Part shown: positions 19,798-20,515 of the stretch, in pieces
Position numbering within the stretch: position 1 is the stretch's first letter
How the letters are laid out: each line of letters starts with the position of its first letter
Source: an archaeon
GTDB lineage: Archaea; Nanobdellota; Nanobdellia; Pacearchaeales; GW2011-AR1
Length of the DNA: 26,608 bases
Direction of reading: 5' to 3'
NCBI GenBank assembly: GCA_027318675.1
Contig: DAHVOT010000001.1
Span: forward strand, 1 to 26,608
Made by a program: the position numbers and the translations under genes
The notes under the pieces: model-generated
Databases searched by the model: none
The model's input: only the letters and a program-made list of their open reading frames with translations
What the model was told of the DNA's origin: nothing

Positions 19798-20249
19798 TTT
19801 TTATTCTCCTTCTTATCTTTAGTTTTTATTTCCTTTTTAGTTGTTTCTGTATTTTCTTTTGATTTTTCTTCTTTTTTATTCTCTGTTTTTTTGTTTTTAG
19901 TTTTTCTTTCTGCCATTTCAATAATTTGCATATTTGAAGGTTGCAGCTTTACATTTGCTTTTGAACCATCTTGTTTTTTAACTTGCATTTCTTCGACAAT
20001 TATCTTCGATGTTTTAAGATTTATTGAAAGTATTTTTCCAGTTTTACCCTTGAATTTTCCTACAAATATTTTAACTTTATCTCCTTTTTTAGCAGGGACA
20101 TTTCTTTTTCCAATTTTCTTTCTAAGTTCCTTTGAAAGATTAATACTTACAAATTCTTTTCTTAAATGTAATGGAGCATTTGCTCTGTATTTTCTTTGCT
20201 TTCTTGGTTGCTTACTTGATTTCCAGTGTGTTGAAAATTTTTGTTTCAT
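19794..20249 (-). CDS. rpl24: 50S ribosomal protein uL24 with K/E-rich C-tail
   Basis: SSKQPRKQRK, LSKELRK, KGDKVKI..GKFKG (KOW), PSNMQI. Confidence 0.97.
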   Translation of the reverse strand: MKQKFSTHWKSSKQPRKQRKYRANAPLHLRKEFVSINLSKELRKKIGKRNVPAKKGDKVKIFVGKFKGKTGKILSINLKTSKIIVEEMQVKKQDGSKANVKLQPSNMQIIEMAERKTKNKKTENKKEEKSKENTETTKKEIKTKDKKENKK

Positions 20250-20515
20250 TTTAAATTATCCTCTATATTTTTAATTTTTCCGCTATATTCACTTACATCT
20301 ATCCCTAGATCTAATAATTGATTATATGTCTCTTTTACTTTATCTAAACAAACAGCTAAATCTCCTTTAGTAGGAATATGAGAACTTCCAGGTACAGAAA
20401 GATGTTTTCTTATATATAAATAATTCATTTGAGCATCTGATATATGTTTATCTAATTGTTGTCTTAGATTATTTTCTCCTATTTCAGCTAGTTTTTCTAT
20501 ATTTCTTTCTGTCAT
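20246..20515 (-). CDS. Orphan 89-aa protein inserted between rpl14 and rpl24
   Basis: Fills the gap exactly: ATG 1 nt after the rpl14 stop, TGA overlapping the rpl24 ATG; no recognisable family. Confidence 0.75.
   Translation of the reverse strand: MTERNIEKLAEIGENNLRQQLDKHISDAQMNYLYIRKHLSVPGSSHIPTKGDLAVCLDKVKETYNQLLDLGIDVSEYSGKIKNIEDNLK

Follow-up and report, generated by a model that had tools for sequence, protein, structure and literature searches.

An 89-residue gene lodged between the uL14 and uL24 genes of a DPANN archaeon is probably an accessory junction cassette from a fast-turnover pool

The uL14 and uL24 genes of the archaeal genome analysed here are separated by an 89-codon gene, ORF89, that is probably an accessory, promoterless junction cassette belonging to a fast-turnover pool; a probability of about 60% is assigned to this reading. 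ORF89 is one case of a lineage-wide habit in which core operons carry unrelated small ORFs at their gene junctions. It lies in a stretch of 26,608 nucleotides (the window) whose minus strand holds the archaeal ribosomal-protein operon from uL3 to SecY. The S10-spc ribosomal-protein cluster is among the most rigid gene orders of prokaryotes and is usually a cold spot for gene gain. The ultra-small archaeal lineage considered here tolerates up to about a dozen small genes inside this cluster, in addition to others in RNA-polymerase and exosome operons, and such genes turn over quickly between near-identical backbones.

ORF89 (20246..20515, minus strand) follows the uL14 gene (20517..20918, minus strand; Pfam PF00238 Ribosomal_L14, E 1.4e-32) and precedes the uL24 gene (19794..20249, minus strand; Pfam PF16906 Ribosomal_L26 and KOW). 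Translation of the window gives an 89-codon frame free of internal stops. The initial annotation had described an 89-aa ORF coupled to both neighbours, and both couplings are present: a single nucleotide separates it from uL14 (TAA-A-ATG), and its stop overlaps the start of uL24 (ATGA, -4 nt). The GAGGA that the gene was said to supply for uL24 is found in the final ORF89 codons as a Shine-Dalgarno-like motif (20259..20263, minus strand), 9 nt ahead of the uL24 ATG. The base composition is host-like, as had been stated, with a GC content of 0.26-0.30 similar to that of the adjacent genes. The word TTAAAATGA is found on both sides of the gene on the minus strand. The upstream copy (20512..20520) comprises the uL14 stop TAA, the intervening A and the ORF89 ATG-A, whereas the downstream copy (20246..20254) comprises the last ORF89 codons, including the TGA stop that overlaps the uL24 ATG; the distance between the starts of the two copies is 267 nt. 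Rfam gave no match in the window, and the predicted folding of the insert does not surpass that of shuffled sequence (z-score 0.17). A 30-nt direct repeat of 80% identity links the start of ORF89 (20493-20522, TATTAAAATGACAGAAAGAAA) to the interior of uL24 (19894-19923, TATTGAAATGGCAGAAAGAAA, encoding IEMAERK); it was not retained as meaningful and is probably due to chance, the sequence being AT-rich and K/E-rich.

The source genome (G000) is a MAG of 0.72 Mb, 83% complete, in which ORF89 is present in one copy. It is assigned to a DPANN archaeon on the basis of relatives labelled Candidatus Woesearchaeota, Pacearchaeota or Nanoarchaeota. At least 93% of the sampled words of the ORF89 stretch were detected in 18 runs from at least 12 studies, covering digesters, sludge, wastewater and mine drainage. 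Contigs from two other studies (9.3 kb and 6.7 kb) run through uL14, ORF89 and uL24 with 2 differences over 1125 nt, and this independent assembly indicates that the locus is no artefact. In run X12 the word depth of the stretch is about 150-230x, and a low-depth contig joint in this run skips 311 nt. No RNA run was listed among those holding the stretch; in a putative RNA run only part of uL24 was covered, which has no bearing on expression. Population variants, in small numbers, amount to 5 in the 270 nt of ORF89 (2 synonymous, 3 non-synonymous) and to 2 in 855 nt of its flanks, both synonymous.

ORF89 is a genuine protein-coding gene. An exhaustive phmmer search returned four small homologs, and profile and genome searches enlarged this set to about 15 members of 77-115 aa, referred to as family A. 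All members share the N-terminal motif M-[TA]-E-K-N-I-E-K-L-A-E-[YIF]-G-E (also written M-[TA]-EKNIEKLAEYGE or MTE[KR]NIEKLAE.GE), and most share the C-terminal motif Y-x-S-x-I-K-N-I-E-E-K-L-[KN] (Y-x-S-x-IKNIEEKLK; Y.S.IKNIE..L[KN]). These ends are kept among members that are only 20-40% identical, whereas the middle region is hypervariable. The codons of the motifs vary synonymously between members, so that the constraint concerns the protein rather than a site in the DNA. The close pair P0002 and P0008 shows a dN/dS of 0.18, with a dS similar to that of the flanking genes, and a dN/dS of 0.41 was obtained for P0005 and P0010. Most members terminate in GAGGA or GAAGA followed by TAA-A-ATG. 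The family tree is a star whose branching order was not recovered, and hopping between junctions is therefore indistinguishable in it from old paralogs followed by loss.

Family A occurs only in this family-level DPANN lineage, among MAGs labelled Woesearchaeota, Pacearchaeota or Nanoarchaeota. Intact homologs were found in relatives, and the accompanying search for a known viral or mobile family gave no match. A word-index protein search with ORF89 as sole query returned only itself, and when the family alignment was used for pattern scans, no relatives appeared among viral, genome and metagenome contigs; viral contigs likewise contained no relative of ORF89. PHROGs and PADLOC gave nothing for ORF89, single family members being matched only above E 0.003, and neither the NCBIfam, Pfam and PDB sequence profiles nor a protein atlas search provided a usable match. 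Two long TPR-repeat proteins match residues 28-83 of ORF89 in phmmer (E 1e-7 and 5e-7, summed over 8 and 3 repeats), with no Pfam TPR match to ORF89 up to E 1; these similarities in sequence may be taken as a weak lead.

The ORF89 protein looks like a cytoplasmic, near-neutral three-helix bundle. With 12 K+R, 14 D+E and a pI of 5.9, its charge is near neutral as the initial annotation had noted, and its view that the product is not a basic rRNA-binding protein agrees with this pI. The pI values of the family lie between 4.6 and 7.9, apart from one outlying member at 9.3. No segment resembling a signal peptide was found in ORF89. AlphaFold2 with the family alignment predicts a confident bundle (pLDDT 91.4) composed of helices 3-37, 50-69 and 75-88; the VPGSSHIP stretch, around which a helical pattern had been proposed from the sequence, falls in the loop 38-49 of this model. 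Searches by fold with PDB Foldseek, VIA-align wide and ESM Atlas found only generic three-helix bundles, from which no function could be read. The matches include bS20 (TM 0.65-0.72, rmsd ~2 A), the Not5 N-terminus (Z 8.3-8.5), spectrin, syntaxin Habc and designed proteins, and the best Z of 9.7 is under the level stated by the tool as noise for helical bundles. Co-folding of ORF89 with uL14 and uL24, carried out without controls, gave a score of 0.00 that counts neither way on binding. Conserved ends, a hypervariable centre and quick turnover would suit a protein-binding module under changing selection.

Family A is not tied to the uL14|uL24 junction. Members are located there in G000, L060, L087 and G013, at uS8|uL6 in L057, L083/L084, G014 and G015 and as a second copy in G013, at uL23|uL2 in L059, at uL30|uL15 in G205, and after Rrp4 in the exosome operon of L058 (P0005). 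More distant members were found in non-ribosomal contexts among uncharacterised genes (G014:C2 and G016:C19). Nearly all of the junctions formed by the family are 1-nt gaps or ATGA overlaps. ORF89 itself is 40% identical to members located at uS8|uL6, compared with 28-36% for those located at its own junction. In L058, a reverse-transcriptase gene (RVT_1, 6511-7509) is situated directly downstream of the exosome operon that holds P0005 and a second insert of 107 aa. In L085 (255-1168), P0010 is found between two paralogous ORFs of 104 and 110 aa, both with the pattern '..IRG.K.NFLE...GVDY..', and conserved genes are absent nearby; this locus may be a source array of cassettes.

The adjacency of uL14 and uL24, which the initial annotation took as the norm, holds within this lineage. 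The two genes adjoin, 4 nt apart, in 20 of the 24 genomes of the genus, and in 10 of 11 genomes from other genera of the order the gap between them is free of ORFs and does not exceed about 47 nt. A small ORF occupies the junction in four of the 24 genus genomes and was confirmed as family A only in G000 and G013. In G022, from another genus of the order, the gap is about 270 nt long (L024, ~1905-2179 in operon orientation). Its operon strand lacks any ORF that reaches 35 aa, and the gap could represent an insert that has decayed.

A direct comparison is provided by G009, the genome nearest to G000, whose uL14 is 98% identical in amino acids. G009 and the window are collinear along 22 kb, in which 84-88% of the nucleotides are identical. 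The sole large indel between the two is ORF89: exactly 267 nt between the two TTAAAATGA copies are missing from G009, where one copy, to which the upstream copy of the window was aligned, forms a clean empty site. A third state is found on the metagenome contig L087, whose flanking proteins are 92-99% identical to those of G000 and which carries at the same junction a 93-aa family A member (P0011) only 36% identical to ORF89. Nucleotide identity between G000 and L087 stays at about 0.9 up to the edges of the ORF, where it drops sharply, and is 0.45-0.48 in the middle of the cassette. The dN between ORF89 and P0011 (0.62) exceeds the dS of the flanks (0.39-0.51), a divergence beyond that of neutral descent from a shared insert; independent gain, allele replacement or strong diversifying selection is suggested instead. 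In a tree of concatenated ribosomal proteins L087 adjoins the pair formed by G000 and G009, so that at least two events have to be assumed at uL14|uL24 within a very tight clade. The uS8|uL6 junction is also changeable in the clade of L083, G035, G018 and G004, where four states were observed: a family A cassette, an empty site, an unrelated 115-aa ORF and a short remnant. The family A insert of L083 (P0008) is flanked by a duplication of TAAAATGA relative to the empty site of G035, and at uS17|uL14 an ATGA duplication borders a cassette from another family, so that both sides of an insert repeat the style of the empty junction. Among close relatives, family A members come, go or replace one another quickly.

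The same behaviour extends to many other ORFs. The whole uL3-SecY operon was annotated in the 24 genus genomes, in the outgroup genus G205 and on several metagenome contigs. Between 0 and about 13 extra small ORFs were counted per operon in the genus genomes and G205, and almost every junction is occupied in some genome. Eight genomes have none (G009, G016, G008, G002, G017, G031, G033 and, from a partial operon, G035), and the richest are G014 (about 13), G205 (9), G018 (8) and G013 (at least 8). Loci with 8-13 extras from several unrelated families are L092 (G018), L104 (G014), L105 (G013), L114 (G205) and L083. The cassette-rich genomes are mostly deep branches and G205, whereas the crown clade containing G000 is cassette-poor. 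Clustering by BLAST of 74 small ORFs, namely 63 extras from the survey and family A homologs from other contigs, yielded 46 clusters, 34 of them singletons. At least four families of extra ORFs are found at more than one type of junction, and none of the 20 extras tested belongs to a Pfam family. Among extras for which no Pfam match was obtained are a family of about 118 aa and alpha/beta appearance at uL18|uS5 and uS5|uL30, an 'EIKKVNSLEE' family at uS14|uS8 and eS4|uL5, membrane-helix ORFs at uL22|uS3 and uL6|eL32, and a helical family of about 100 aa at uL3|uL4, uL24|eS4 and uS17|uL14.

Variable small ORFs were also detected at junctions of the rpoH-rpoB-rpoA-NusA-S12-S7-EF2 operon (L202 = G009:C3, L203 = G014:C12 and L204 = G205:C3), with no BLAST similarity between genomes at E 1e-5. 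G009 holds extra ORFs in this operon, whereas its main ribosomal-protein operon has none. In the same three loci a homolog of L30e was not recognised in its usual place between rpoA and nusA. No such extra ORFs were found in the uS13-uS4-uS11 operon. No description of inserts of this sort in DPANN core operons was found in the literature searched.

Shorter DNA is shared between junctions as well. The 51-nt spacer between uL2 and uS19 in the window (23594..23644, minus strand) belongs to a mini-element of 55 nt. This element encodes a mini-ORF of 16 residues, MKNKKFFKDTKLGDFA, whose stop is the 17th codon, and ends in TAATG on the start of the next gene; its AGGAG sits inside a CAAAAT/ATTTTG stem. 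The mini-element is present at uL2|uS19 in G000 and L087 (~1890-1945) and at uS8|uL6 in G016 and G017 (L094 ~9653, L098 ~9662), with 1-4 substitutions in a 35-nt core. Its near-identity at two junctions of different species shows that short DNA moves or is copied between junctions in the genus. The two other long spacers of the operon, on the minus strand of the window before uS3 (22484-22539) and before uS14 (18576-18647), resemble a diverged mini-element (..AAATTTTTCA..ATTCAAA..GGAGG..TTTAA-ATG). They are located at junctions where cassette-rich relatives hold ORFs of 86-104 aa, and scars or mini-cassettes may describe them better than dedicated leader peptides.

As a junction cassette, ORF89 would be functional yet dispensable and placed exactly between the uL14 stop and the uL24 start. 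It would be transcribed by read-through within the ribosomal-protein operon and, as no Shine-Dalgarno motif precedes its start, would be translated by termination-reinitiation at TAA-A-ATG. Ribosomes would then be passed to uL24 through the ATGA overlap and the GAGGA of ORF89 itself. The TAAAATG(A) junction word on both sides may serve as microhomology for entry or exit of the cassette, and homologous recombination in the conserved flanks possibly aids its spread. Cassettes were observed precisely placed at coupled junctions, with duplicated junction words and clean empty sites; different members of one family occupy one site in near-identical backbones, and one family occupies several sites. 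The 9-nt repeat flanking ORF89 and left as one copy in G009 equals the commonest junction word (the operon strand of the window has 19 TAAAATG, the opposite strand 3), and it may therefore have arisen simply from coupling instead of marking an insertion. Searches around the ORF89 insert detected no terminal inverted repeats, attC-like site or recombinase, and no transposase was found encoded in or near the gene. The idea that cassettes generally open with a copy of the downstream gene start was abandoned (mean of 10.2 vs 9.9 matches per 27 nt, with few stand-out cases).

A bolder proposal can be put forward tentatively, as possible but rather doubtful: ORF89 would belong to an undescribed mobile unit of this DPANN lineage, consisting of promoterless single-ORF cassettes and of the 55-nt mini-element as a non-autonomous form. 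Such units would insert precisely at the TAA-A-ATG or ATGA junctions of the most highly expressed core operons and be exchanged between species, and the hypervariable protein of ORF89 would possibly be engaged in conflict with a virus, the host or a competitor. Duplication of the junction word would then keep translational coupling on both sides.

A serious competitor of the junction cassette for the overall pattern is ancestral richness followed by loss, since the family tree leaves branching order unrecovered and the deep branches are cassette-rich. According to this explanation, ORF89 would be an old vertical resident, a survivor and not a newcomer: an ORF-rich ancestor carried family A paralogs at several junctions, and such ORFs evolve near-neutrally and are being lost by deletion between junction repeats. 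The cassette-poor state of the crown clade fits this history, as do the recurrence of the same family at the same junction in distant species (uL3|uL4, uS14|uS8, uS8|uL6), the deletion-scar look of the spacer mini-ORFs that G000 has at junctions occupied in relatives, and the 3 non-synonymous variants out of 5 in ORF89 compared with 2 synonymous out of 2 in the flanks. It does not explain well the trio of G000, L087 and G009 or the near-identical mini-element at two junctions. The dN between ORF89 and P0011 lies above the dS of the flanks, with central identity at random level, ORF89 is as near to uS8|uL6 members as to those of its own junction, and purifying selection is apparent in the close pair. 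As an account of ORF89 itself, old residence is considered unlikely. A selfish or function-less ORF is very improbable. Such an ORF would persist only through its preservation of coupling, its apparent constraint reflecting no more than selection against a toxic, misfolded and highly expressed product, and there is indeed no known domain, fold-based function or partner; its simple K/E/N/I-rich helices are readily encoded by an AT-rich genome, and its presence is patchy. Yet specific terminal motifs are kept by strongly diverged members despite synonymous change, the dN/dS of 0.18 indicates constraint, and ORF89 is fixed and near-identical in populations from many sites.

The initial annotation had favoured a lineage-specific ribosome-associated factor, assembly chaperone or operon regulator, produced at ribosomal-protein stoichiometry; an anti-association factor would be a further form of this reading. 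Part of this stands: ORF89 is a genuine, lineage-specific, host-like and coupled gene. The specific tie to uL14/uL24 or to the ribosome does not, given five junctions, two non-ribosomal contexts and absence from 20 of the 24 genus genomes. The comparison of the junction across relatives went against a role linked to uL14 and uL24, the nearest genome being empty and dozens of unrelated small ORFs behaving in the same way at such junctions. As one of many small and fast-changing junction genes, ORF89 is unlikely to serve uL14 or uL24 as a dedicated partner, and greater constancy in both presence and position would be expected of a dedicated ribosome factor or assembly chaperone. Tight coupling to both neighbours and a fold like that of the three-helix ribosome binders bS20 and Not5 speak in favour of such a factor, and, as all but two of the well-resolved family A contexts are ribosomal-protein or exosome operons, so that translation and RNA processing dominate, a connection with the ribosome is conceivable. 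Against it count also the near-neutral charge throughout most of the family and the generic nature of the fold matches. A ribosome-associated factor is accordingly regarded as quite unlikely, and an accessory junction cassette as the better description of ORF89.

If this description is correct, genome-reduced symbionts with few promoters could add and test new genes by plugging them into the coupled junctions of strong operons. The inserts would then form a pool of highly expressed 'dark' proteins to be characterised and might reveal an insertion mechanism that targets junctions. Marker-gene synteny and operon-based annotation in DPANN archaea should allow for such inserts.

ORF89 shares features with several known systems and differs from morons, integron cassettes and homing genes each in a defining one. 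Phage morons are extra genes located between conserved genes of syntenic lambdoid phage clusters and possess their own promoter and terminator. ORF89 is, like them, a small accessory ORF between conserved co-oriented genes, patchy in close relatives and leaving clean empty sites. Contrary to morons, it has no promoter or terminator of its own, with junctions of 1 nt and -4 nt, needs operon transcription and coupling, and resides in a cellular core operon. Integron cassettes resemble it as promoterless single-ORF units that depend on an upstream promoter and form variable arrays of many unrelated families. ORF89 is not followed by an attC-like inverted repeat, its 3' end being coding and running straight into uL24, and no integrase-like ORF was noticed among those of the window. 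The inserts of this lineage are moreover spread over many junctions, whereas integron cassettes are stacked at one attI. The free-standing homing endonuclease genes of T4-like phages (seg, mob) are likewise optional, wedged between conserved genes and found as filled and empty sites, but they encode GIY-YIG or HNH nucleases, while ORF89 encodes a plain three-helix bundle for which Pfam, NCBIfam and PHROG gave no match to a nuclease domain (LAGLIDADG, GIY-YIG, HNH, PD-(D/E)xK).

Ribosomal proteins offer two further points of comparison. bS20 is similar to ORF89 in size and three-helix topology. It is only 3-13% identical to it, strongly basic and specific to bacteria, in contrast to the pI of 5.9 of ORF89, and the match in fold is no better than that to spectrin, syntaxin or designed bundles. 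The archaeal spc operon has itself contained 'extra ORFs', later recognised as eS4, eL32, eL19, Rpp29 and SUI1, which are archaea-wide and fixed in position. As they are, ORF89 is a non-bacterial ORF inside a ribosomal-protein cluster; unlike them, it belongs to a one-lineage family, shifts in position and is missing from most relatives. SUI1 and the extra ribosomal proteins of the archaeal spc operon are present in the window alongside ORF89.
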